A stretch of DNA of 64,000 nucleotides from Clostridiales bacterium (GTDB taxonomy: Bacteria; Bacillota; Clostridia; Christensenellales; JAISNN01), in assembly GCA_031276195.1 (NCBI GenBank), contig JAISNN010000077.1, positions 5,165 through 69,164 on the forward strand, in the 5' to 3' direction. A model generated the notes under the pieces. The model was not told the DNA's origin. It searched no databases and saw nothing but the letters and a program-made list of their open reading frames with translations. The position numbers and the translations under genes are program-made. Below are positions 4,382-63,746 of this stretch, in pieces. Numbering within the stretch: position 1 is the stretch's first letter; each line of letters starts with the position of its first letter.

Positions 4382-4552
4382 TAAATTTTTCCTTATAGAA
4401 TTCTTTTTTTAATTCCCAACGATTACGCTTTTTTGTCTGATTTTTTTTAGAATTCCCAACGATTTTGTTTTTTCTTTATCGATTTCTTTTTCCGATAGTT
4501 TTAAAATTATGCGATAAAGCGGTAGTTACCGTAAATTCCATTCCTTATATTC

Positions 4553-4589
4553 CCCTCCGTGGGAGGGGATCTAAGGGGTGGGGCGACCG
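4553..4589. repeat. short palindromic interspersed element (CCCCTCCGTGGGAGGGG-N6-GGGGTGGGGCGA)
   Basis: 7-bp stem / 3-nt loop GC hairpin followed by GGGGTGGGGCGACCGATT; same element at 37834, 41496 (inverted), 53388, 53489, 53609, 61994 and within the long forms at 61529 and 63426. Confidence 0.85.
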
Positions 4590-25671: not shown

Positions 25672-25898
25672 TTGCTTTTCCGCTCCCTTTTTTCGGTCTT
25701 TTTTTATATTTTATTTGTATTTTTTAATGCTTTTTTTTTGCGTTTTATATGTTTTCTTATGTTCTTTAATGCTTTTTTTTGCGTTTTTTTGCGTTTTATA
25801 TGTTTTCTTATGTTTTTTAATGCTTTTTTGTGTTTTTTTAGGCTGTTCCGCTCCGCGTGAGGGGGACGGGGCGGCATTGCTTTCTCACCCGATAACGG

Positions 25899-37545: not shown

Positions 37546-37833
37546 AACCGTTATATTATAAACCAAAGAGGAAAATAAATAAAGTAAATTTAAGCCGATT
37601 AACCAAAAAAACAAAAAAAATCACGCGGCAATCCGATCCCGAACCGCCGCGCAAAAAAAATCACATTAAAAAAATTTCAAAAACTTCCGCGCTCCGCAAA
37701 AAATCCCGATTAAATCAAATGGTACAAAAATTACAACTAACATCGGACGGCGTAAAAATTACGACTAAAATCGTACAATGCAAAATTCCCCTCTCGTTAA
37801 GAGAATACCAAATTGGCGTGGCAACAGACTATT

Positions 37834-37870
37834 CCCCTCCGTGGGAGGGGATCAAAGGGGTGGGGCGACC
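37834..37870. repeat. short palindromic interspersed element
   Basis: ATTCCCCTCCGTGGGAGGGGATCAAAGGGGTGGGGCGACCGATT. Confidence 0.85.
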
Positions 37871-37884
37871 GATTAAAAATTATT

Positions 37885-38238
37885 TTATTTCTTTATTTCC
37901 ACTATGCAATACTTTTTCTGGTTATAAGGATAACCGCCCGCAAACGTAAGTCGTCCTTTTTCTTTTGCATTCTTAGTTAATTGCACTTGAAACTTTTTAC
38001 CGTTTGCGGAAAAAGATGATTTATTATCCTTTTCCCTGTTTGTTGCAATATTTGCAATTTGTATGTTTTCGTACGTATCCTTGCCGCCGTTTGATAACGG
38101 CTGTATATGATCGATATTCCAGCCGTACGGCGAATTCTCGTTTCCGTACTCGCTTTTGTGAATTTCGCGTCCCGCGAAATCATACGCTATCTGCTTATTT
38201 CCAAAGTCCTTTTCCCACAAATATATTTCATTCGACAT
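37885..38238 (-). CDS. small HNH-family endonuclease
   Basis: 117 aa; NIDHIQPLSNGGKDTYENIQIANIATN = HNH/His-Me finger core (DH...P...GG....N); RBS GGAGGA; low-GC gene. Confidence 0.7.
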   Translation of the reverse strand: MSNEIYLWEKDFGNKQIAYDFAGREIHKSEYGNENSPYGWNIDHIQPLSNGGKDTYENIQIANIATNREKDNKSSFSANGKKFQVQLTKNAKEKGRLTFAGGYPYNQKKYCIVEIKK

Positions 38239-38405
38239 AAATATGTCCTCCGTTAGTTTTTTTCGGCAATGCCGTCAATCTTTTATTTTTTTATTTCCGC
38301 TATGCAATACTTTTTACTTGAATAGTCATATCCGCCCTTCCGCCCGCCGCCGTCTTTAACTACGGCGGTTTTTAGTACGGATTAAAGTTTAGCGAATATC
38401 TTTTG

Positions 38406-38963
38406 TTATTCTTTTGCTTTCGCAAAGAATGTCGCTCTGCTGTCGTTTACCGTTTGCTTTTTTATTTCTTCCAGATCCGTTATTTTTTGGTATCTAATTC
38501 TCAGTTGTCCGGCGTATTCTTGTTCGGCTTGCGCGTATTTTTCTTGATATTCTTTTTTATATGTATCGTATTTATAGTATGCTATTATTTTATACGCTAT
38601 TAGACTTAACGATATTATTACCGGGTACACCGTTATATTTGAACTCATGGCCGATGTTATGACTATCGCGGAAATCATTATAATTATTAAGACGTTTATT
38701 AGTTTTGTTTTGGGTTTTTCTTTCATTTCTTCAAATTGAAATAATATCGTTGTGTTTTTCAGTTTATTTATTTGTTCTTGTGTGTTTTCATATTGTATTT
38801 GATATTTTAGCAAATCACCGTAAACCGGGTTTTGCGTTTCTCTTGATAAGGCTATCCCTTTTTCAGTTACGGACAGCAACTCCCATCCGAAACTTTCATA
38901 ATCATATATGATTTGTTGCTTATCTTCTTTCTGACATTCTATCAATTTCGATTCTCTTGACAT
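38406..38963 (-). CDS. hypothetical membrane protein (2 TM helices, coiled-coil tail), co-oriented immediately upstream of the HNH gene
   Basis: 185 aa; cytoplasmic N-domain, TM helices LINVLIIIMISAIVITSAM and VYPVIISLSLIAYKIIAYY, charged C-terminal coiled coil; very AT-rich. Confidence 0.6.
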   Translation of the reverse strand: MSRESKLIECQKEDKQQIIYDYESFGWELLSVTEKGIALSRETQNPVYGDLLKYQIQYENTQEQINKLKNTTILFQFEEMKEKPKTKLINVLIIIMISAIVITSAMSSNITVYPVIISLSLIAYKIIAYYKYDTYKKEYQEKYAQAEQEYAGQLRIRYQKITDLEEIKKQTVNDSRATFFAKAKE

Positions 38964-39193
38964 ATATTATATGTACTCCTTTTTGCTTTTTTTCGGCAAT
39001 CCCCCACAATACTTTATTTTTTTAGTACCATTACCGTATTATGTATTCATATTAACATAACTTTCAATATGATGTCAACTATTTTACATACCATACCTTG
39101 AAATAATTATAATTATATCATTTTACCAATTTTCATAACTGTATAGCGGAAGCCTTTTTGCTCTATAATTTTAGTGTCGATAAGGGAGGCGTT

Positions 39194-39502
39194 ATGGAAC
39201 TTGACGAATTGATTCACAGAATAGGCGTATTGCGCGCCCGCGCAAACCTTTCCGCGCGCGCTTTGAGCCTGAAAATCAATATGAACGAATGCTATATCAA
39301 CCGCTTGGAAAACAATAAAACAAAGTTCGAGCCGTCTCTCGGCACGCTTTTTTCGATCATCGAGGCTTGCGATTCGACGCCCGAAGAATTCTTTTATCAC
39401 AATATAAACGAATTTAAAATCGACAAACAAACCATAGACCTCTTGAAAAAACTCTCTCACGAACAAAAAGAAGCCCTTATGACACTGTTAAAAAATAAAT
39501 GA
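39194..39502 (+). CDS. XRE-family helix-turn-helix transcriptional regulator
   Basis: start moved to ATG 39194 (MELDELIHRIGVLRARANLSARALSLKINMNECYINRLEN) with AGGGAGG RBS; classic HTH_3 pattern; divergent from the membrane-protein/HNH pair. Confidence 0.75.
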   Translation: MELDELIHRIGVLRARANLSARALSLKINMNECYINRLENNKTKFEPSLGTLFSIIEACDSTPEEFFYHNINEFKIDKQTIDLLKKLSHEQKEALMTLLKNK

Positions 39503-40981: not shown

Positions 40982-41394
40982 TGAACAATTCCTCCCTCTT
41001 TAAATTTATCGCTTTACGGCTCTTTTGACGGTTAATAAAATTCTATCAATTTAAAATTCCGCTTTGCGGTTCCCGTATGTTTGCGAAAACGTTCATCGTT
41101 TAAAATTCCGCTTTACGGCTCTTTTATCGTTTACCGTAACGTTCCGTCTTTTAAAATTTATCGATTGAAATTCTTACGGCTTTTAAATCTCCTCTTTTAT
41201 TCTTTACGCTTATTCATTTTAAATTCACAATTACATTATATTGCATAAGAAAGCCAAAGTCAATAGGTTTTGAAAAAATAAATCATAAAATATATGACGG
41301 ATTAAAAGTTTAATTACGGTTCTACACTTTTCCCAAAATTATTGAAAGTTTTTGAAAAAAAGCGGAAATAAGTAAAATACCTTTTTAGTGCGCG

Positions 41395-41528
41395 GATTTT
41401 TCAGATAAAAAACGGCTTATTTTTGAGGGCAATAGCGTTCGCTATTGCCAAAAACACAAGAACGATTACAAAAATACTAACCCTTTCGCCCCACCCCTAC
41501 ACCCCTCCCACGGAGGGGAATTCTTTAC
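41395..41528. repeat. composite interspersed element in inverted orientation (CAATAGCGTTCGCTATTG palindrome module + CGCCCCACCCC..CCCTCCCACGGAGGGG)
   Basis: revcomp gives CCCCTCCGTGGGAGGGGTGTAGGGGTGGGGCGA followed by GGCAATAGCGAACGCTATTGCC, homologous to the internal module of the 61505 and 63419 long elements. Confidence 0.75.
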
Positions 41529-43710: not shown

Positions 43711-46700
43711 TTAAGCGTTTTTTTGAATTCGCCCGTTTCGTTTTTTAAGCGTTTTTTTGAATTCGTCCGTTTCGTTTTTAAGCGTTTTTTTGAATTCGCT
43801 CGTTTCGTTTTTTAAGCGTTTTTTGAATTCGTCCGTTTCGTTTTTTAAGCGTTTTTTGAATTCGTCCGTTTCGTTTTTAAGCGTTTTTTTGAATTCGTCC
43901 GTTTCGTTTTTAAGCGGTAATAATTCCTCTTCGGGCAGTTGAGACCTTGCCAACTCGCCGTAGGGCGGGCAATCGCGCATAAGTTCCTTATGCGTTCCCT
44001 GACCGATGATTTTTCCGCCGTCCACCATTACGATCTTGTCGGCGTTTAAGACGGACGCGATCCTTTGCGTTACGACTATTACTCCCGCGTTATTTTCCTT
44101 TGTTTCGCGGCTCAGCGCGGCGCGTAAATTCGCCTCGGTCAGATAGTCCAGCGCGGAAAACGAATCGTCGAAAACATACAACCGCGGACGGCGCACGACG
44201 GCGCGCGCGATCGCGAGTCTCTGTTTTTGACCGCCCGACATATTTTTTCCGGCGCGGCTGACGAACGCGCCGTATTTATCCGTTCCGTTTTCGTTCGGTA
44301 CCGTTTTTTCGCCGTTCGGTATTATTTCAACGTTATTCCTTCCTTTTTCTTTCTCGTTTTGTATTATTTCACTTCTTTCCGCGGTTTTCGGCTCTTTTGC
44401 GCCGATGAAATCTTCGGCTTTCGCGATCAAAACCGCCCTGTCCATATCGGCTATATCCGCGTCCTCCTTCCCCGCGGCGAGGTTTTCCCTCACCGTTCCC
44501 GAAAAAAGGCGCGGTTGTTGGGATACGAATCCGATATTTTTCCTCAAATCCTCCTGCCTTACGCGCCTTATATCTATTCCGTTGACGAAAACCGCCCCCT
44601 CGGTCGGGTCGTAGAAACGTAAAATGAGGTTTACGATCGTGGTTTTTCCGCTGCCCGTAACGCCGACGATAGCGGTTGTTTTGCCCGATTTCGCCTCGAA
44701 CGACACGTCTTTCAGAGCGTATTCGCCGCTCCCCGCGTATTTAAATGCGACGTTTTGAAAACGGATATCGAATCTCTTTTCTTTGGCGGCGGATTTTCCG
44801 CCGTTCGTTTCTAATTCCGTATTCGAAGACTTATCTTTATCTTTATTTAATTCCGTTTCAAAATTCAAAGATTTTCCGCCGTTCGTTTTCAATTCCGTAT
44901 TTAATTCCGTTCCGGCGTTAACCGGCTCTCCCGTATATATATCGACGGGGTTTTCGGGGTCGGCGACCTCGGGTTTCGCCGCCAAGATCTCCCAAATCCT
45001 CTTCATCGCGACGACCGCGCGCGGCAAAAAAACGAACATCCCCGCGATCAGCATAAACGCGTAGATTATCTGCACGGTATACTGCAAAAACGCCAGCAAA
45101 CTCCCGGGCAGTATAGAACCGTCGATAAGATAGTTTCTGTCCACCGTGAGGTATATGATTACAACGCCCAAAGCGTTCAAAAACAACATCATAAAAGGAT
45201 TCAATAACGCCATAGTGCGGTTGATAAAGAGGTTCACGTTCGTGATTTTTTGGTTCACGTCCTCATATCTCCCCTCCTCGCGCGGTTCGTTGTCGTTCGC
45301 GCGTATGACCAAAACGCCGCTCAAACGCTCCCTCGTTACGAGATTGAGTTTGTCGAGAAGTTTTTGTCCCGCGAGAAATTTCGGCAAAACCAAAGCGTAG
45401 ACCGCTGCCACGCCGACGGAAATGACCGCGATCATAGCCGCGATCAAAAGCAGCAGCCGTTCGTTTATTCCCAGCGTCTTATGCAGATAATACAGCCCGC
45501 CGCCCACGACGAATATCGCGTAGAAGGTGTTTTTTATCATAAGAAAAAACAGGCTTTGGAGTTGGCTTACGTCGTTCGACGTTCTCGTGATCAAAGACGC
45601 GGTCGAAAATTTGTCGAATTCCGCGTTCGAGAAGGTCTGCACCTTTGAAAAAACGTCGCGTCTGAGATCGCGCGCGACGTTCGCCGCGACGCGCGCCGAC
45701 AACGCGATTATGACCGCCGCCGCCGCTATACTCCCCACGGTATAGAGGAGCATAAAAATTCCGTTTTGGACGATATAATTGATTTGAAGCAGGCGCGTAT
45801 CCACGCCCGCCCGCCCGTACTCGAACTTTTTATAGTCGATATTTCCGAGTTCTAATATATAGTCCGTGATCTCGGGCGCGATTCTCGAAAAAGCGGAGAG
45901 TACAGTATCGGCGAAACTTGACGCTTCGTTTTCGTCTATGCCGAATTCGTCGACCAACGCTTTTACGACGTCCTCTTTTTTTATCTCGCCCGCTTTTGGC
46001 GAAAATTTGCCGTTCACCGCGCCCGAAACGATCTGCATAAACAGCCCTCTTTCGGAATTTCCGTAAATCACGCCCTCTCCGTCCGGGTTTTGTCTCTCGC
46101 TCATAGCCTTTAATTCGTCAAAATATTCGGATAGCGTCCAGCCTTTTTGATTTTCTTTATATTCGTTAAATCCGTCGGGATTGTCTTTCGGGTTTAGTCC
46201 GTTGAAATACGCGAACAACACGGAAAGAAAAGAGTTGTCGCTCAAAAAGCCCACGGACGAAATCGCAAGCATTTCGTTAAACGCCGCGTAGACTATCGCG
46301 GGAATTTTTAATTTTTCGCGGAGAGCGTCGATTTCCTCCTCCGTAAAGTCGTTTTTAAAATATTCGACGTTGCGTTTGAGGAGATACACCTCCTCGCCCT
46401 CGTTTAGTTTCGTATACTTTTTTTTGTATGCCTCGAATTCTTTTTTATCGATAACCCTTAACGGGTTTGTGTAGGCGTAGTTAATCCCGATATAATAATT
46501 TTTAAACTCATCGTACTCCTTGTCCGTCATAAAGAGTTTAATTTCCCCGAAAGTCTTTTGGCTGAAAACGTCGGGGAGAGCGTCGTCGATTCCGTATTGC
46601 CTGATTCCGACGTTTATCATATTGGACATATATTTCGGCAATTCCAAATCGCAGTACGCCTGAATCCCGATCAAGCATACCGCGAGAATAATTATTTTTA

Positions 46701-46734
46701 AATATTTTTTCGGATATTTTAATATTTTCAGCAT
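43711..46734 (-). CDS. ABC transporter ATP-binding/permease protein, heterodimer partner, with about 300-aa N-terminal extracytoplasmic domain, NBD insertions and C-terminal 11-aa tandem repeats
   Basis: 1007 aa; TM1, large loop, 5 more TM; NBD with GVTGSGKTT, MSGGQKQRLAIARAV, LYVFDDSFSALD; C-terminus (LKNETDEFKK[TR]) x6 encoded by 33-bp DNA tandem repeats at 43711-43930. Confidence 0.8.
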   Translation of the reverse strand: MLKILKYPKKYLKIIILAVCLIGIQAYCDLELPKYMSNMINVGIRQYGIDDALPDVFSQKTFGEIKLFMTDKEYDEFKNYYIGINYAYTNPLRVIDKKEFEAYKKKYTKLNEGEEVYLLKRNVEYFKNDFTEEEIDALREKLKIPAIVYAAFNEMLAISSVGFLSDNSFLSVLFAYFNGLNPKDNPDGFNEYKENQKGWTLSEYFDELKAMSERQNPDGEGVIYGNSERGLFMQIVSGAVNGKFSPKAGEIKKEDVVKALVDEFGIDENEASSFADTVLSAFSRIAPEITDYILELGNIDYKKFEYGRAGVDTRLLQINYIVQNGIFMLLYTVGSIAAAAVIIALSARVAANVARDLRRDVFSKVQTFSNAEFDKFSTASLITRTSNDVSQLQSLFFLMIKNTFYAIFVVGGGLYYLHKTLGINERLLLLIAAMIAVISVGVAAVYALVLPKFLAGQKLLDKLNLVTRERLSGVLVIRANDNEPREEGRYEDVNQKITNVNLFINRTMALLNPFMMLFLNALGVVIIYLTVDRNYLIDGSILPGSLLAFLQYTVQIIYAFMLIAGMFVFLPRAVVAMKRIWEILAAKPEVADPENPVDIYTGEPVNAGTELNTELKTNGGKSLNFETELNKDKDKSSNTELETNGGKSAAKEKRFDIRFQNVAFKYAGSGEYALKDVSFEAKSGKTTAIVGVTGSGKTTIVNLILRFYDPTEGAVFVNGIDIRRVRQEDLRKNIGFVSQQPRLFSGTVRENLAAGKEDADIADMDRAVLIAKAEDFIGAKEPKTAERSEIIQNEKEKGRNNVEIIPNGEKTVPNENGTDKYGAFVSRAGKNMSGGQKQRLAIARAVVRRPRLYVFDDSFSALDYLTEANLRAALSRETKENNAGVIVVTQRIASVLNADKIVMVDGGKIIGQGTHKELMRDCPPYGELARSQLPEEELLPLKNETDEFKKTLKNETDEFKKRLKNETDEFKKRLKNETSEFKKTLKNETDEFKKTLKKRNGRIQKNA

Positions 46735-47027
46735 ACCGTTTTTTCCTAAGGTTTTTTTGCGGTCTTTTACTTTTTTTATGAATATCTATAACGTTTTTAG
46801 AATGAATTTTCTTGAATGTCTATAACGAACCGTTTTTTTTGTAAAGTTTCTTGTATGTCTATAACGAATAAATAAACTAACCGTTATTTTTAATCCGCTA
46901 CCCCCCGCTATTGACCGCCGTCCGCCGATATTCCACTAAATTATACCACACTATTATTCAAATTTCAATAATAAAGGAAAAATAGAAAAAAATATTTTTA
47001 AAAATTTTGAAAAAGGCTATAAAAATA

Positions 47028-47056
47028 ATTGACATTGCCGCCTTTTAATTATATAA
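47028..47056 (+). promoter_or_regulatory. perfect consensus sigma70 promoter TTGACA-17-TATAAT upstream of potA
   Basis: TTGACA 47028-47033, 17-nt spacer, TATAAT 47051-47056; about 465-nt leader before potA. Confidence 0.6.
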
Positions 47057-47522
47057 TCAATTTAACGTTCTAACGCGGCTTCACGATGCCGCCCGGACGG
47101 GAAAAAGTAAAAAGAGTAAAAAAGCGACAAAACTATTGTTAAAATCCTTAGCTTTTACCGATTTTATATAATTTTTTTGGAAGACGCGCTTTCGTTTAAA
47201 CGGGAATTCTCCCTTTTAAAAGGCTTAACCGCCGCGCGGCTTCTTTAACCGGGTTATATAATTTCCCTAAAAAACGCGGCTTGTCCGTCGTTTCGTTAAG
47301 GATCTTGACGGTAGTTATTTTTTTGCTTTTTTTATAGCAAGTGTTATAAAAAAGACACGGAGGGACGCGGACTTTTACCGGGCTTAATTCCGAATCCCGT
47401 AAAAATCAGCGCGGAATCGTCTTTAAAATTCCCGAATCCCCTTAAAACTTAGTCAATAATTATCATAAAAATTCGTTTCGTAAAGAATTTTGGATATCCC
47501 TATTCTATCGAGGAGCAAAAAA

Positions 47523-49106
47523 ATGGCGGATAACACGATCATCGAATTAAAAAACGTCTCGAAAAGTTTTGCGGGCGGCGTGAACGTCGTCGACAATATC
47601 GGCTTAAAAATCAAAAAGGGCGAGTTCGTAACCCTTTTAGGTCCGTCGGGCTGCGGAAAAACGACCACGCTCAGAATGATCGCGGGTTTTGAGATTCCGA
47701 CGGCGGGCGACGTGCTTTTGAACGGCGAATCCATAATAAACGTCCCCCCTCACCTGCGCCCCGTCAATACGGTGTTTCAAAAATACGCGCTTTTTCCGCA
47801 TTATAACGTGTTTGAGAATATCGCTTTCGGTCTGAAAATCCGGAATAAGCGTATGATCGCCGAAAAAAAAGCCGAAGCGAAACGCGAAAGCAATGCGGAA
47901 AAAAGACAAGCATTGAAATACAAGTCCGAAGCAAAAAAAGAAAATGATTCCGATAAAAAACAAGCATTAAAAGATAAAGCGAAAGAAACGCTAAAAAGCG
48001 GCGCGGAAAAAAGACAAGCCCTAAAAAACGAAGCCGCCGGAATCAAGGCGAATTCCAAAAATGAAATAGAAAAAAAGGTCAAAACCGTCTTAAAGATGGT
48101 GGGGCTCAGCGACTACGAATACCGCGACGTAAACAGCCTCAGCGGCGGACAGCAACAGCGCGTCGCGATCGCCCGCGCGCTTGTGAACGAACCCGAAGTC
48201 CTCCTCCTCGACGAGCCTTTGGGCGCGTTGGACTTGAAACTCCGCAAGGAAATGCAACTCGAATTAAAGGAGATGCACGAAAAACTCGGCATAACGTTTA
48301 TATACGTTACGCACGACCAAGAGGAGGCTTTGACGATGAGCGATACCGTCGTCGTTATGAAAGACGGGATTATCCAGCAAGTCGGAACGCCTACGGACGT
48401 ATACAACGAACCGAAAAACGCCTTCGTCGCGAATTTCATAGGGGATTCTAATATATTCGACGGCGTTATGCCCGAAGATTTGGTCGTGCGCTTTGACGGC
48501 GCGGTCTTCGAGTGCGCGGACAAGGGTTTCAAAAAGAACGAAAAGGTCGACGTGGTTATACGCCCCGAAGATATATACCTTATGGACGCGTCCAACCCGA
48601 ACGCGCAAGTCAAAGGAAAGGTTATTTCCAGCATATTCAAGGGCGTTCACTACGAGATGGGCGTTATGTCCGAAAATAAATGCGAATATCTCGTGCAGGA
48701 CACGACGAAACGGGACGTCGGCGAAGAAGTGGGTATGTTCGTCAAGCCCTTCGATATACACATTATGAAAAAGCCCTATACGGCGAACGTATTCGAGGGT
48801 GTAATCGCGGAGAACGGCAAGGTCAATTTCGGCGGCGGCGTCTACGACGCGGATACCGAAGGCTTTTCGGAGGGCGAAAACGTCTGGGTCAAGGTATCAC
48901 TGAACGCCGTCGAAATCGTCGACGACAAGGAAAACGGTACGGTAGGCGGCGAAGTTACGACCATTTTATTTAAGGGGACGCACTACCATATCGATATCAA
49001 ATGCGGAAACTTTATATACCACGTCAATACCGACGTGCAATGGGACGACTATGACCGCGTGGGCATAATCATAAAACCCGAAAATATAAAACTCTATAAG
49101 GCATAA
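47523..49106 (+). CDS. potA: spermidine/putrescine ABC transporter ATP-binding protein with Lys/Glu-rich repeat insertion and C-terminal TOBE domains
   Basis: GPSGCGKTT Walker [28 protein letters not shown]-loop; about 75-aa insert (AEKRQALK repeats, about 47840-48085) in the helical subdomain; start set to ATG 47523 ([14 protein letters not shown]) with GGAG RBS; the track start 47490 is TTG. Confidence 0.88.
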
Positions 49107-53380: not shown

Positions 53381-53690
53381 GTAAATTCCCCTCCGCGGGA
53401 GGGGCAAGGGGTGGGGCGAACTTTCCTTACTATCCTCAATTCCCCTCTTAAAGCGCATCTTTCCGCATTTCTCTAATTTTCCGCTATTCCCCTCCGCGGG
53501 AGGGATCAAAGGGGTGGGGCGAAACGTTCGCTTGATATTTTACCGTTTACGTCAATGACAACGGGGCTTACAAAGCGATGCATTTTCCCCCGTTCTCTCA
53601 TTATCCTCAATTCCCCTCCGCGGGAGGGATCAAAGGGGTAGGGCGGCATTATGAAATTATTATATTCCTCAATTCCCCTCCGTATAGAAA
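53381..53690. repeat. cluster of 3 complete + 2 truncated short palindromic elements
   Basis: complete copies at 53388-53420, 53489-53522, 53609-53640; truncated AATTCCCCTC at about 53440 and 53674; irregular spacing (20-85 bp). Confidence 0.8.
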
Positions 53691-60381: not shown

Positions 60382-61458
60382 ATGAGAGTTTACAATTTTT
60401 CAGCCGGCCCGTCGATGCTTTTCGAGGACGTTTTAAAAGAGGTTCAAGCCGATATGCTGTCCTACAAGGGTTCGGGGTTATGCGTCGCGGAGATGAGTCA
60501 TCGTTCCAAGGATTATATGGAAATTCATTCGGAATTTATAAGTCTTCTCCGCGAATTGATGGAAATTCCGGAGGGTTACGACGTTCTTTTGCTTCAAGGC
60601 GGCGCGTCGCAGCAATTCGACGCGATCCCGCTCAACCTCTTAAAAAACGGCAAAGCGGACTACGTTATCACGGGGCACTGGTCGGAGCGCGCTTTTTCGC
60701 AGGCCGCGCCTTTGGGGGACGTCGCCGCCGTCGCGTCGTCTAAGGAGTCCGTGTTCACGTACGTTCCCGAACTTCCGTCGTCTATATTCCGCGGCGGCAC
60801 GGATTACGTTCACATCACGACGAACAACACCATTTACGGCACGAGATACACCTCCCTTCCCGACACCGAATCCCCTTTGGTCGCGGACGCGTCGTCGAAC
60901 ATTTTGAGTGAAAAGACGGACGTTTCAAAGTTCGGAGTCATATACGCGGGGGCGCAAAAGAATATCGGGCCGGCGGGTCTGACCGTCGTCATAATCAAAA
61001 AATCCTTAATTTGCAAGGATTTGCCGCGTTACTGCCCCAAAATGCTCAAATATTCCACGCAAGCCGAGGCGGACAGTCTTTTCAACACGCCGCCGTGTAT
61101 GGCGATTTATATGTCGCTTTTGACCTTGCGGCATCTCAAAAAACTCGGCGGAATCGGCGCGGTTCAAAAGATAAACGAGGAAAAAGCCGGTCTTCTCTAT
61201 GACTTTATCGACAATTCCGCGTTCTACAAAAACAACGTAAACAAAAAAGACCGTTCGCTTATGAACGTTCCCTTCCTCTCGCCGAACGGCGACCTTGACA
61301 AAAAGTTTATTAAAGAATCCGCGGCGGCGGGGCTGCTCACTTTGGCTGGGCATAAGACCGTCGGGGGGATGAGAGCGTCGATATATAACGCTATGCCGAT
61401 CGAAGGAGTTAAGGCTTTGATCGGATTTATGAAAAAATTTGAAATTGAGAATAAGTGA
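60382..61458 (+). CDS. serC: 3-phosphoserine/phosphohydroxythreonine aminotransferase
   Basis: 358 aa; MRVYNFSAGPS N-terminus, PLP-lysine region GAQKN.GP.G. Confidence 0.92.
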   Translation: MRVYNFSAGPSMLFEDVLKEVQADMLSYKGSGLCVAEMSHRSKDYMEIHSEFISLLRELMEIPEGYDVLLLQGGASQQFDAIPLNLLKNGKADYVITGHWSERAFSQAAPLGDVAAVASSKESVFTYVPELPSSIFRGGTDYVHITTNNTIYGTRYTSLPDTESPLVADASSNILSEKTDVSKFGVIYAGAQKNIGPAGLTVVIIKKSLICKDLPRYCPKMLKYSTQAEADSLFNTPPCMAIYMSLLTLRHLKKLGGIGAVQKINEEKAGLLYDFIDNSAFYKNNVNKKDRSLMNVPFLSPNGDLDKKFIKESAAAGLLTLAGHKTVGGMRASIYNAMPIEGVKALIGFMKKFEIENK

Positions 61459-61504
61459 GTTTTGCCGTTAGAGATTATCTTTCGCGGATTGCAAGTTTAA
61501 GAGC

Positions 61505-61712
61505 CGTCAGCCTCCAAAATTCCCCTCCGTGGGAGGGGATAAGGAAGCGGAGATTAAACGGAACGAATTTTGAATAGCGGATTTTTTAGATAGGAAGCGG
61601 CTTGTTTTTGCGGGCAATAGCATTCGCTATTGTCAAAAAGACAAGGCGGTTTATAGCAAAAAAGACGCATTCTAAAATCCGTTCAAGTTTACTCGACGAT
61701 TCCAAGGGTGGG
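61505..61712. repeat. long-form interspersed element (about 205 bp), copy A, upstream of serA
   Basis: CCCCTCCGTGGGAGGGG at the left end, internal GCAATAGCATTCGCTATTG palindrome, CCAAGGGTGGGGCG at the right end; about 97% identical to 63419-63618. Confidence 0.85.
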
Positions 61713-61993
61713 GCGGCCGTTAAAAAAACTTTCGCGGATTGCAAGTTTAAGCGTTGTCTAAAACGACAAAATTATTCATTGAAAAAAGGATATAATGTTT
61801 GAGAGTTGAGTAATTTAAGAGTTATCTGAAACATTATATATTCGTAATATATAGTATGTATGCCGTTTGCGGACCGCGCAGCCCCCCCTTTTTCGGGGGA
61901 AACCGGCAATTAAACGCGGAAAAAACGGCATTTAAAAAAACCGAAACCAAAACGGCATTTAAAAAATCCCCTTAGCGGAAAGTCTCCAAAATT

Positions 61994-62030
61994 CCCCTCC
62001 GTGGGAGGGGTTGGGGTGGGGCGACCGATT
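61994..62030. repeat. short palindromic interspersed element
   Basis: AATTCCCCTCCGTGGGAGGGGTTGGGGTGGGGCGACCGATT. Confidence 0.85.
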
Positions 62031-62248
62031 AGAAAAAGTCCGTCCTCCGTATCGCGATAAAAATTTCCTAAAAAAACGGATTACAAAAAAATTTAAAACA
62101 AGAAAGCAAAACAATCAAAATAAAACAAGAAAAACAGTCAAAACAAACTAAAACCCATTATAAATCATTATAAACCAAACCAAACGTTATAAAACGAACC
62201 AAACCAAACCCAAAAAAACATTATAAAACAAGGAAACCGATATAAAAT

Positions 62249-63412
62249 ATGTATAAAATTTTAAAATTGAATGAAATAAGCGACCGAATCGACGCGATTT
62301 TTGATGAAAACTATTCCTGCACCGACGACGCGAACGAAGACGCGGACGGCATAATCGTCCGCAGTTTCAAGATGGCGGATTTTAATACGGGCGGCAGGCT
62401 CAAAGCCGTCGCGCGCGCGGGCGCGGGCGTAAACAACATTCCGATAGACAAGATGACGGAAAAGAACGTCGTCGTTTTCAACACTCCGGGCGCGAACGCG
62501 AACGCCGTCAAGGAACTTGTCATTTGTTCTTTGCTTTTGGCTTCCCGAAAGGTTACGGAGTCGATCGGCTGGGCGGCGGCGCAGAAGGGCAAGGGCGGCG
62601 AAGTCCCGAAACTCGTCGAGAAGTTTAAAAACCAATTTGTCGGACCCGAAATCGCGGGGAAAACTCTCGGCGTGATCGGTTTGGGCGCGATCGGGATTCT
62701 GGTTGCGAACGCCGCGATCGGTTTGGATATGAAGGTTTTGGGGTATGACCCGTATCTCAGCGTCGAGTCCGCGCTCACCTTAAACAACAAAGTCGGGCAT
62801 ACCAAGGACATAAACGCCCTTTATGCCGCGAGCGACTATATAACTTTGCATCTTCCCCTTTTGCCCTCGACTTCGGGTATGATAAACGCCGAAACGATCG
62901 CCAAGATGAAAGACGGCGTAAAACTTATCAATTGCGCGCGCGGCGAATTAGCGGACAACGCCGCGGTGATTGCGGCGGTGAGTTCGGGCAAGGTCGCCAA
63001 GTACGTAACGGATTTTCCGACGGACGACGTTTTGAACGTCGAAAACATAATTGCGATTCCCCATCTCGGCGCGTCCACGCCCGAAGCGGAGGACAACTGC
63101 GCGGTTATGGCGGCGAAACAACTCAAAGACTACCTTGAAAACGGCAATATCGTAAACAGCGTGAACTACCCCGCGGCGGTTTTGCCGCGCAGCGGAAAAG
63201 CGCGGATCACGATCACGCACAAAAATATAAGCGGTATGATATCGCAGGCGGCGGCTTTCCTCTCCGACTCAAAAATTAATATCTCGAATATGCTCAGCGC
63301 GACGCGCGGCGACCTCGGCTATATGATAATCGATACCGACGACGCCGTACCCGAAAAAACTATATCCGAAATGAAAAAAATCCAAGGCTTCCTGCAAATC
63401 AATATATATTAA
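62249..63412 (+). CDS. serA: D-3-phosphoglycerate dehydrogenase (short form with C-terminal ACT)
   Basis: 387 aa; 2-hydroxyacid DH NAD-binding GxGxIG (GVIGLGAIG), catalytic R/E/H region, C-terminal ACT (ITHKNISGMIS). Confidence 0.88.
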   Translation: MYKILKLNEISDRIDAIFDENYSCTDDANEDADGIIVRSFKMADFNTGGRLKAVARAGAGVNNIPIDKMTEKNVVVFNTPGANANAVKELVICSLLLASRKVTESIGWAAAQKGKGGEVPKLVEKFKNQFVGPEIAGKTLGVIGLGAIGILVANAAIGLDMKVLGYDPYLSVESALTLNNKVGHTKDINALYAASDYITLHLPLLPSTSGMINAETIAKMKDGVKLINCARGELADNAAVIAAVSSGKVAKYVTDFPTDDVLNVENIIAIPHLGASTPEAEDNCAVMAAKQLKDYLENGNIVNSVNYPAAVLPRSGKARITITHKNISGMISQAAAFLSDSKINISNMLSATRGDLGYMIIDTDDAVPEKTISEMKKIQGFLQINIY

Positions 63413-63418
63413 AACCTC

Positions 63419-63618
63419 CATACATTCCCCTCCGTGGGAGGGGATAAGGAAGCGGAGATTAAACGGAACGAATTTTGAATAGCGGATTTTTTAGATAGAA
63501 AGCGGCTTGTTTTTGCGGGCAATAGCATTCGCTATTGCCAAAAAGACAAGACGGTTTATGGCAAAAAAGACCCATTCTAAAATCCGTTCAAGTTTACTCG
63601 ACGATTCCAAGGGTGGGG
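63419..63618. repeat. long-form interspersed element, copy B, immediately downstream of serA
   Basis: begins 7 bp after the serA stop; direct repeat of 61505-61712. Confidence 0.85.
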
Positions 63619-63648
63619 CGTCCGTTTGTTTTATTTCTATTTTTACGA

Positions 63649-63746
63649 GTGGGAAAACTTTTTAAAAAGTTTTCCCACTCACCCCTTTTCAAAAACTTTT
63701 AGTAAAATAAAAAAACTTCCGTTTGATTTCGATACGGAAGTTTTTT
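63649..63746 (+). terminator. tandem terminators after serA (palindromic GGGAAAACTTTTT-family element + canonical hairpin/T-run)
   Basis: GTGGGAAAACTTTTTAAAAAGTTTTCCCAC perfect palindrome; then CTTCCGT-N11-ACGGAAG followed by TTTTTT at 63717-63746. Confidence 0.6.

Follow-up and report, generated by a model that had tools for sequence, protein, structure and literature searches.

Two long direct repeats flank serA, the gene for a D-3-phosphoglycerate dehydrogenase, in a stretch of 64,000 nucleotides from a Clostridiales bacterium (contig JAISNN010000077.1, positions 5,165 to 69,164 of the forward strand), hereafter the window. From an architectural standpoint, each of them is a small, non-autonomous, nested or modular interspersed repeat of the kind exemplified by REP, BOX and miniature inverted-repeat transposable elements (MITEs), and it belongs to no named family. 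The reading favoured here, which we hold to be fairly probable, is that the two repeats represent one composite, non-coding and non-autonomous element that was nested once and then copied as a unit. The outer part would be a member of a clade-specific, REP/BOX-like family of short repeats, into whose variable linker an inner MITE-like module of 159-161 bp would have landed in a single nesting event; a second intergenic site would subsequently have received a copy of the whole composite, presumably by means of a trans-acting factor recognising the family termini.

The features that define the locus are the following, with all coordinates given as positions in the window.

60382-61458, + strand: serC, phosphoserine transaminase (NF003764, 2.8e-149; TIGR01364, 471 bits; both above cut-off).
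61511-61721, + strand: long copy A, made up of the core 61519-61715, extended by the conserved CCTCCA on its upstream side and CCGTT on its downstream side.
61522-61538, + strand: left hairpin of copy A, CCCCTCC-GTG-GGAGGGG.
61545-61703, + strand: internal module of copy A, a 159-bp imperfect palindrome.
61704-61718, + strand: right G-box of copy A, AAGGGTGGGGCGGCC.
62249-63412, + strand: serA-type D-3-phosphoglycerate dehydrogenase, 387 aa with an ACT domain; stop codon at 63410-63412.
63415-63626, + strand: long copy B, with core 63424-63620 and module 63450-63608.

The serA protein matches TIGR01327 at 2.8e-73, which is under the equivalog cut-off, and a 100% identical protein from a Clostridiales metagenome-assembled genome (MAG) carries the name 3-phosphoglycerate dehydrogenase. 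A repeat search of the window returned A (61519-61721) and B (63424-63626) as the sole 203-nt direct-repeat family, with 97% identity and a spacing of 1905; in a global alignment, 197 of the 203 positions are identical and no indels occur inside the repeat. The first 75 nt are identical, and the six differences (at window positions 61594, 61633, 61646, 61655, 61667 and 61716) are spread across the 3' two-thirds. Homology extends from CCTCCA (61511 and 63415, with a 1-nt indel) to CCGTT (61721 and 63626), beyond which the flanks are unrelated by both blastn and alignment. Copy A starts 53 nt past the serC stop and copy B 3 nt past the serA stop (12 nt if the core is considered), both being sense-oriented relative to these genes. 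The hairpin CCCCTCCGTGGGAGGGG has nine matches in the window at up to two mismatches, against 0 expected, the palindrome GCAATAGCATTCGCTATTG has just three occurrences in the window, at 61614, at 63519 and, with 1 mismatch, at 41429, and a terminal GGGTGGGGCG box is present in the long copies. An earlier note on this DNA had described near-identical direct repeats of 200 bp on either side of serA, recognisable by this hairpin, palindrome and terminal box; the description is borne out, with its coordinates right to about 10 nt and its three landmarks found far above chance.

The sequence comes from a MAG contig, and an identical stretch such as the first 75 nt can confuse short-read assemblers, so that one of the two copies might be an artefact of metagenome assembly, in the form of a repeat-induced misjoin or a strain chimera. 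This explanation is very improbable, because a looped duplication would yield identical copies, whereas A and B differ at six positions, lie in unrelated flanks and are joined by a third, diverged copy elsewhere in the window; moreover, serA is intact and the serC-serA order is the same as in all relatives.

In their outer parts, A and B match a family of short elements of about 37 bp, confirming the earlier proposal that they are long forms of that family. Its members share a left box ATTCCCCTCC, the hairpin CCCCTCC-GYG-GGAGGGG (a 7-bp stem with a 3-nt loop), a variable linker and a G-box GGGGTGGGGCGACC, giving the window consensus (T)CCTC(C)A..ATTCCCCTCCGYGGGAGGGG-linker-GGGGTGGGGCGACCGATT; the short copies are imperfect palindromes of 33-37 bp. 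The window holds seven short copies, the two long ones and one degenerate copy near 25848, which amounts to a density of about one per 6-7 kb. On a crude map of open reading frames (ORFs) all ten are intergenic, and nine of the ten lie on the + strand. The short members are these.

4549-4585, + strand: short member, from hairpin match and flank table.
37831-37867, + strand: short member beside an HNH ORF, from hairpin match and flank table.
41487-41521, - strand: inverted short member abutting the truncated right arm of copy C, the third copy of the module.
53385-53418, 53486-53521 and 53610-53645, + strand: cluster of three short members, all direct, plus solo left-end fragments.
61991-62023, + strand: short member in the serC-serA spacer, whose flanks 61974-61990 and 62024-62036 resemble those of copy A (repeat matches of 89% and 83%).

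Solo left-end fragments TCCTCAATTCCCCTCY, which have neither hairpin nor G-box, are found beside complete copies at 53430-53450, 53660-53690 and 37780-37800. The orientation bias of the family is independent of gene strand, since the + orientation is kept on either side of a switch at about 47 kb: near 46000-48000 the genes change from almost all minus to all plus, the AT skew flips sign and the GC skew passes from about -0.1 to about 0. A speculative and rather improbable reading is that such near-uniform orientation stems from single-strand (replication-coupled, HUH-type) mobilisation by an enzyme as yet unrecognised in Clostridia.

Loci of relatives carrying serA, fetched through an exact-protein look-up, place the family in a wider context; they are listed by protein identity of serA, length of the serC-serA spacer and repeat content.

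Window: serA 100%; spacer 790 bp; short and long copies.
L001: serA 88%; spacer 288 bp; module absent; several copies, short or variant, both in the spacer and after serA.
L007: serA 86%; spacer 498 bp; module absent; several copies, short or variant, both in the spacer and after serA.
L002 and L003: serA 81%; spacer 172 bp; no family elements.
L008-L010: serA 79-80%; spacer 15-20 bp; no family elements.

Two further loci of the clade, L011 and L012, hold short copies and fragments and no module. Altogether, L001, L007 and two further loci contain at least 14 short or variant copies and 0 modules, and none of the 13 related or fetched loci has the module. The short family is, as far as these loci indicate, limited to a narrow clade and dense within it. 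Across the window copies and those of L001, L007, L011 and L012 the termini ATTCCCCTCC and GGGGTGGGGCGAYC are conserved, while the linker appears as TT, CAA, TGTA, TGCA, CGTA, ATCAAA or ATCTAA and the interior ranges in length from 2 nt to 165 nt; in one L007 subfamily the hairpin itself is swapped for ATTCCCCTCCTTAGGGYGYAGG... In L011, a unit of about 124 bp holding a short element is repeated in tandem. Conserved termini with variable interiors, a spread confined to intergenic positions, the narrow clade and the end of A-B homology at the family boundaries all fit the suggestion of the earlier note that the family is or was mobile. It is nonetheless important to separate the repeats from the gene between them: serC-serA adjacency is native in all relatives, and serA is therefore not cargo.

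The spacers of these loci contain further repetitive sequence. Directly upstream of the serA start in the window, a low-complexity, A-rich stretch in which short direct repeats (CAAACC and ATTATAAA units) overlap occupies 62100-62247 and adds to the long 790-bp serC-serA spacer. Another repeat (ATCGACCGCCGCCCGTCC..CTTCAAAA) follows short elements in L001 (2440-2480) and in L007 (2500-2540 and 4410-4450) and is absent from the window spacer; in L001, moreover, positions 2525-2540 form a poly-C run of 16 nt.

The internal module lies, in both A and B, exactly in the hypervariable linker of the family, between hairpin and G-box. Aligned with its own reverse complement it is identical in 122 of 169 columns (72%), and it reaches 161 bp if GG 61543-44 is counted in the inverted repeat GGAAGCG/CGATTCC. 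Its coding capacity is limited to overlap with spurious TTG ORFs of 50-66 aa. A third copy was recovered at a distance from serA.

41360-41478, + strand: copy C, a diverged partial module (blastn 87% over the best 69 nt; three-way alignment).

In copy C the left arm is retained together with the tip palindrome, which has 1 mismatch, and the beginning of the right arm, whereas the outer right arm has been lost; the left boundary of the copy, AAGCGG, is the same as in A and B. It stands outside the short-element frame, with its truncated right arm adjoining the G-box end of the inverted short element 41487-41521. The earlier note had announced a third, rearranged and inverted copy in this region: the module is indeed there, but it is not part of an inverted long form, as it keeps the same + orientation and only the adjoining short element is inverted. 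Module and short element are thus separable entities, met in two arrangements. The note had also left two alternatives, a long form shortened by deletion or a short element enlarged by insertion. The evidence shows the short form to be ancestral and the module to be an insertion, since the relatives carry only short forms and since at 41360-41478 the module is met without a short-element frame around it; its position exactly in the hypervariable linker favours the same alternative.

As to how the second long copy arose, the evidence lies outside the module. Both A and B read GGGT before GGGGCG, in contrast with GGGGT in all seven short copies, both end in CCGTT where the family consensus is CCGATT, and both have the upstream CCTCCA; none of the seven short copies in the window combines GGGT, CCGTT and upstream CCTCCA. 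Given these shared derived states, and homology that goes no further than the family boundaries, the likeliest course is that the composite was copied whole. The same states argue against a different origin, in which the module was inserted twice, independently and site-specifically, into two existing short elements, in the manner of IS1397 or of the solo ssr9 A'B' modules of ISPpu9. The module does occupy the same linker position in A and B and does occur on its own at 41360-41478, insertion into REP sequences is documented (PMC1525189), and a non-coding module can spread alone into REPs via an IS110 transposase (PMC12288879). Nevertheless, no IS110-type or other transposase was found in the window and the module is devoid of large internal loops resembling those of bridge RNA, so that double insertion is judged unlikely, albeit not negligible.

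Alternatively, the second copy may have been generated by recombination, either through gene conversion of an empty short element by an occupied one via the conserved termini or through a local serC-serA duplication. The long copies are only 1.9 kb apart, relatives bear short elements on either side of serA, in the serC-serA spacer and further downstream, and copy A and the short element at 61991 have additional flank homology, amounting to some 17 nt on the left and some 13 nt on the right. A local rearrangement is also suggested by a repeat that brackets copy A.

61479-61501 and 61729-61751, + strand: 23-bp perfect direct repeat around copy A (CTTTCGCGGATTGCAAGTTTAAG), with 227 bp between.

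This repeat has only these two matches in the window at up to three mismatches (0 expected), has no counterpart at copy B and exceeds the classical length of a target duplication; it hints at local rearrangement in the expanded spacer. On the other hand, the homology arms available for recombination measure only about 20-30 bp, A and B share nothing beyond the family boundaries, and the relatives' elements downstream of serA lie 350-460 bp past the stop, as opposed to 3-12 bp here, and are not obviously at orthologous sites. We consequently regard recombination as quite unlikely.

Copying of the composite as a unit thus remains the preferred reading, and several observations weigh against it. 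The 23-bp repeat bracketing only copy A is not explained by it, and A and B have no flanking duplication in common. Screening of 43 window ORFs with Pfam or NCBIfam brought up no transposase, integrase or Y1/RAYT protein. With only three copies of the module, two of them near-identical, neither its ends nor an AA or AAGG duplication can be fixed. Finally, the six A/B differences form no compensatory pattern when mapped on the fold: two are unpaired, one turns G-U into G-C, one turns G-U into A-U, one breaks a G-C pair and one breaks a G-U pair of the weak G-box stem; there is, for this reason, no evidence of selection on structure.

Target-site duplications, for which the earlier note had advised comparing element boundaries, turned out not to be definable for the composite. 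AAGG stands on either side of the module (61541-44 and 61704-07 in A, and likewise in B), and AA or AAGG would fit a target duplication of 2-4 bp; however, A and B are mutual copies and copy C has no right end, hence there is no independent junction and the AAGG flanks prove nothing. Orthologous empty sites gave no answer either, the spacers of the window, L001 and L007 being too diverged for the comparison.

The screened ORFs are of a housekeeping nature (aromatic amino-acid, lysine and serine biosynthesis, ack-pta, ABC transporters and glycosidases). A single one stands out as nuclease-like, namely the HNH ORF of 117 aa at 37885-38238 (- strand; PF01844, 2.1e-6), located 18 nt from the short element 37831-37867. 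It is the first of three small ORFs in a patch at 37885-39466 (- strand) where GC content at third codon positions drops to 0.32-0.43, compared with about 0.6 elsewhere, and which may be a small foreign or mobile insert.

Searches for further copies were likewise negative. The 20-mer of the module tip, GGCAATAGCRTTCGCTATTG, retrieved only chance terminator-like or coding matches from public genome and metagenome contigs, with the limitation that this seed is palindromic and that a less palindromic or a short-element seed might recover more. Seeds from the short element and the module had no match in viral contigs, and the whole element had none by blastn against plasmids and phages. A parent insertion sequence (IS) of the module would be expected to bear the ends GGAAGCGGAG.../...CGACGATTCC.

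Regarding known RNA families and signals, Rfam at the gathering threshold matched only a lysine riboswitch in the whole window and left the repeat unmatched, and relaxing the threshold to E<=10 over 61400-63720 produced only sub-threshold noise. The riboswitch (RF00168, 53796-54008, + strand, 62.8 bits, E 4.8e-14) is situated directly downstream of the 53385-53645 cluster of short elements and upstream of asd/dapA/dapB-aspartokinase-like genes. Within the module, one 9/12 promoter match was found, no more than in shuffles. The element itself was rejected as an intrinsic terminator, as the scan picked out no more than a weak 5-bp stem at the G-box of copy B and shuffled sequences gave more sites; a T-rich tract begins about 20 nt past the long hairpin. 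An integron attC site was discarded as well, because GTTRRRY is lacking at the 3' end, no integrase was found and serC-serA are syntenic housekeeping genes in the relatives. The same holds for an IS110 bridge RNA or solo non-coding module (no transposase in the window, internal loops of only 1-4 nt and no Rfam hit), while retron-like and 6S-like readings were dropped on anatomy.

The stability of the predicted RNA raises the question of function. The whole element A folds at -83 kcal/mol on the + strand (z = -8.4) and at -60 on the - strand, both long copies lie in the sense orientation right after the serC and serA stops, and copy B precedes a terminator-like palindrome, all of which would suit a selected structured RNA (a 3'-UTR stabiliser, a processing site or a small RNA) serving the genes of serine biosynthesis instead of a selfish repeat (UTR, untranslated region). 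Against this, the strand asymmetry of copy B is much smaller (-74 versus -66), no Rfam family matches, the A/B substitutions are not compensatory, copy C is truncated and runs antisense to the genes beside it, and no relative has the module, not even those with 86-88% serA identity. A selected RNA of this kind is therefore improbable, and nothing points to a dedicated function: neither an Rfam match, nor a promoter or terminator signal above shuffles, nor compensation, nor presence in close relatives.

Independently of any dedicated function, the repeats probably reach the transcripts. The palindrome downstream of copy B, which is the sole terminator-like palindrome near serA, is the following.

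63647-63680, no strand assigned: perfect 17+17-bp palindrome (100% complementary), followed by CCCCTTTTC; candidate serA terminator.

It is likely to be the serA terminator, in which case copy B would lie inside the serA 3' UTR. A layout of hairpin plus TTTTCAAAAAACTTT also follows serC and serA in the relative L002. More specifically, TTTTCAAAAAACTTT(CGCG) follows terminator-like hairpins at 63647-63700 of the window and at 2195-2250 and 3560-3625 of L002, and could represent, within the clade, either a conserved tail of terminators or an element upstream of promoters; an A-run plus CTTTCGCGG after copy A (61722-61740) matches the same motif. A and B would accordingly be co-transcribed with serC and serA as 3'-UTR hairpins. 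REP, ERIC and Correia elements affect mRNA decay or processing when they form duplexes at 3' ends, and Correia/NEMIS and ERIC, inverted repeats of 100-160 bp that are co-transcribed with flanking genes, produce duplexes that are RNase III substrates and alter mRNA stability. By analogy, the imperfect duplex of about 70 bp at the 3' end of the mRNA would, if transcribed, be expected to affect decay or RNase III processing. The likeness to Correia and ERIC is one of architecture (transcribed long hairpins), with no sequence similarity claimed.

A more speculative proposal connects the short elements to the same transcripts. A regular-expression search for canonical G-quadruplex (G4) motifs (four G3+ runs, loops of 1-7) on both strands of the whole window gave seven matches, and these seven are the seven short elements.

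4561-4583, 37843-37865, 53397-53416, 53498-53519, 53622-53643 and 62003-62021, + strand, and 41489-41509, - strand: G4 motifs.

The first two G-runs double as the 3' arm of the hairpin, so that the two structures would be in competition; the module of the long forms splits the motif. On these grounds, the short element could be imagined as a hairpin/G4 switch and the module as a transcribed hitch-hiker RNA in the serC and serA 3' UTRs, tying a selfish repeat to the control of serine-gene mRNAs. We give this proposal little credence; the one solid fact behind it is that canonical G4 motifs occur nowhere in the window but in the seven short elements.

At the DNA level, the repeats could, on general grounds and as the earlier note proposed, recombine unequally across serA. 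A pair of 200-bp direct repeats with 97% identity is an adequate substrate for RecA, and unequal exchange between them would delete or amplify the 1.9-kb serA unit.

Taken in a broader context, the window reveals a previously undescribed, clade-restricted family of small repeats in uncultured Clostridiales and, within it, what would be a rare intermediate, namely a mobile non-coding module that is nested inside another and has been propagated together with it. Repeats of this kind break metagenome assemblies, create recombination substrates around an essential biosynthetic gene and inflate intergenic spacers, as seen from the 790 bp between serC and serA here compared with 15-20 bp in the more distant relatives. 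The current understanding of bacterial repeats is unchanged, and the composite is an ordinary class of object.

Among known systems, the outer element resembles REP, BIME and REPIN sequences (PMC3333891, PMC2817692, PMC3116915) in being a short, G+C-rich imperfect palindrome that is extragenic, dense, sometimes clustered, specific to a species or genus and without a demonstrated target-site duplication. It differs from REPs in that the GTAG head is found in only one of nine window copies (41487), although it does appear in the linker of several L001, L007 and L011 variants, and in that no RAYT gene (Y1, IS200/IS605-like) was found in the window. Furthermore, nearly all copies point the same way, and the 53385-53645 cluster is entirely direct, whereas BIMEs alternate and REPINs form inverted pairs. 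The module, in turn, is MITE-like (Delihas 2011, PMC3184786): it is under about 300 bp, non-coding, bounded by the terminal inverted repeats GGAAGCG...CGATTCC and flanked by a possible duplication of 2-4 bp. In contrast with typical MITEs, it amounts to only three copies in 64 kb, two of them within the composite, and no parent IS with matching ends is known. Its location inside a REP-like element recalls the REP-targeted insertions of Tobes and Pareja (2006, PMC1525189) and the solo ssr9 of ISPpu9 (PMC12288879), with the module having so far been seen in this genome alone.

By architecture, the closest analogue is the BOX elements of Streptococcus pneumoniae, modular repeats of the form boxA-boxB(n)-boxC (Croucher et al. 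2011, PMC3049150). BOX differs in that boxB is a common, repeatable unit, where the internal module of the composite is one long palindrome in two or three copies, and in that target-site duplications have been reported for BOX and are not demonstrable here, the comparison being one of architecture only, with no expectation of kinship in sequence. In both cases, small non-coding intergenic repeats are restricted to a narrow clade and combine conserved end modules with an optional internal module that folds largely on its own. Both also have extensive RNA secondary structure, and BOX elements are often co-transcribed with neighbouring genes, their transcribed hairpins influencing mRNA decay or processing (PMC3049150).

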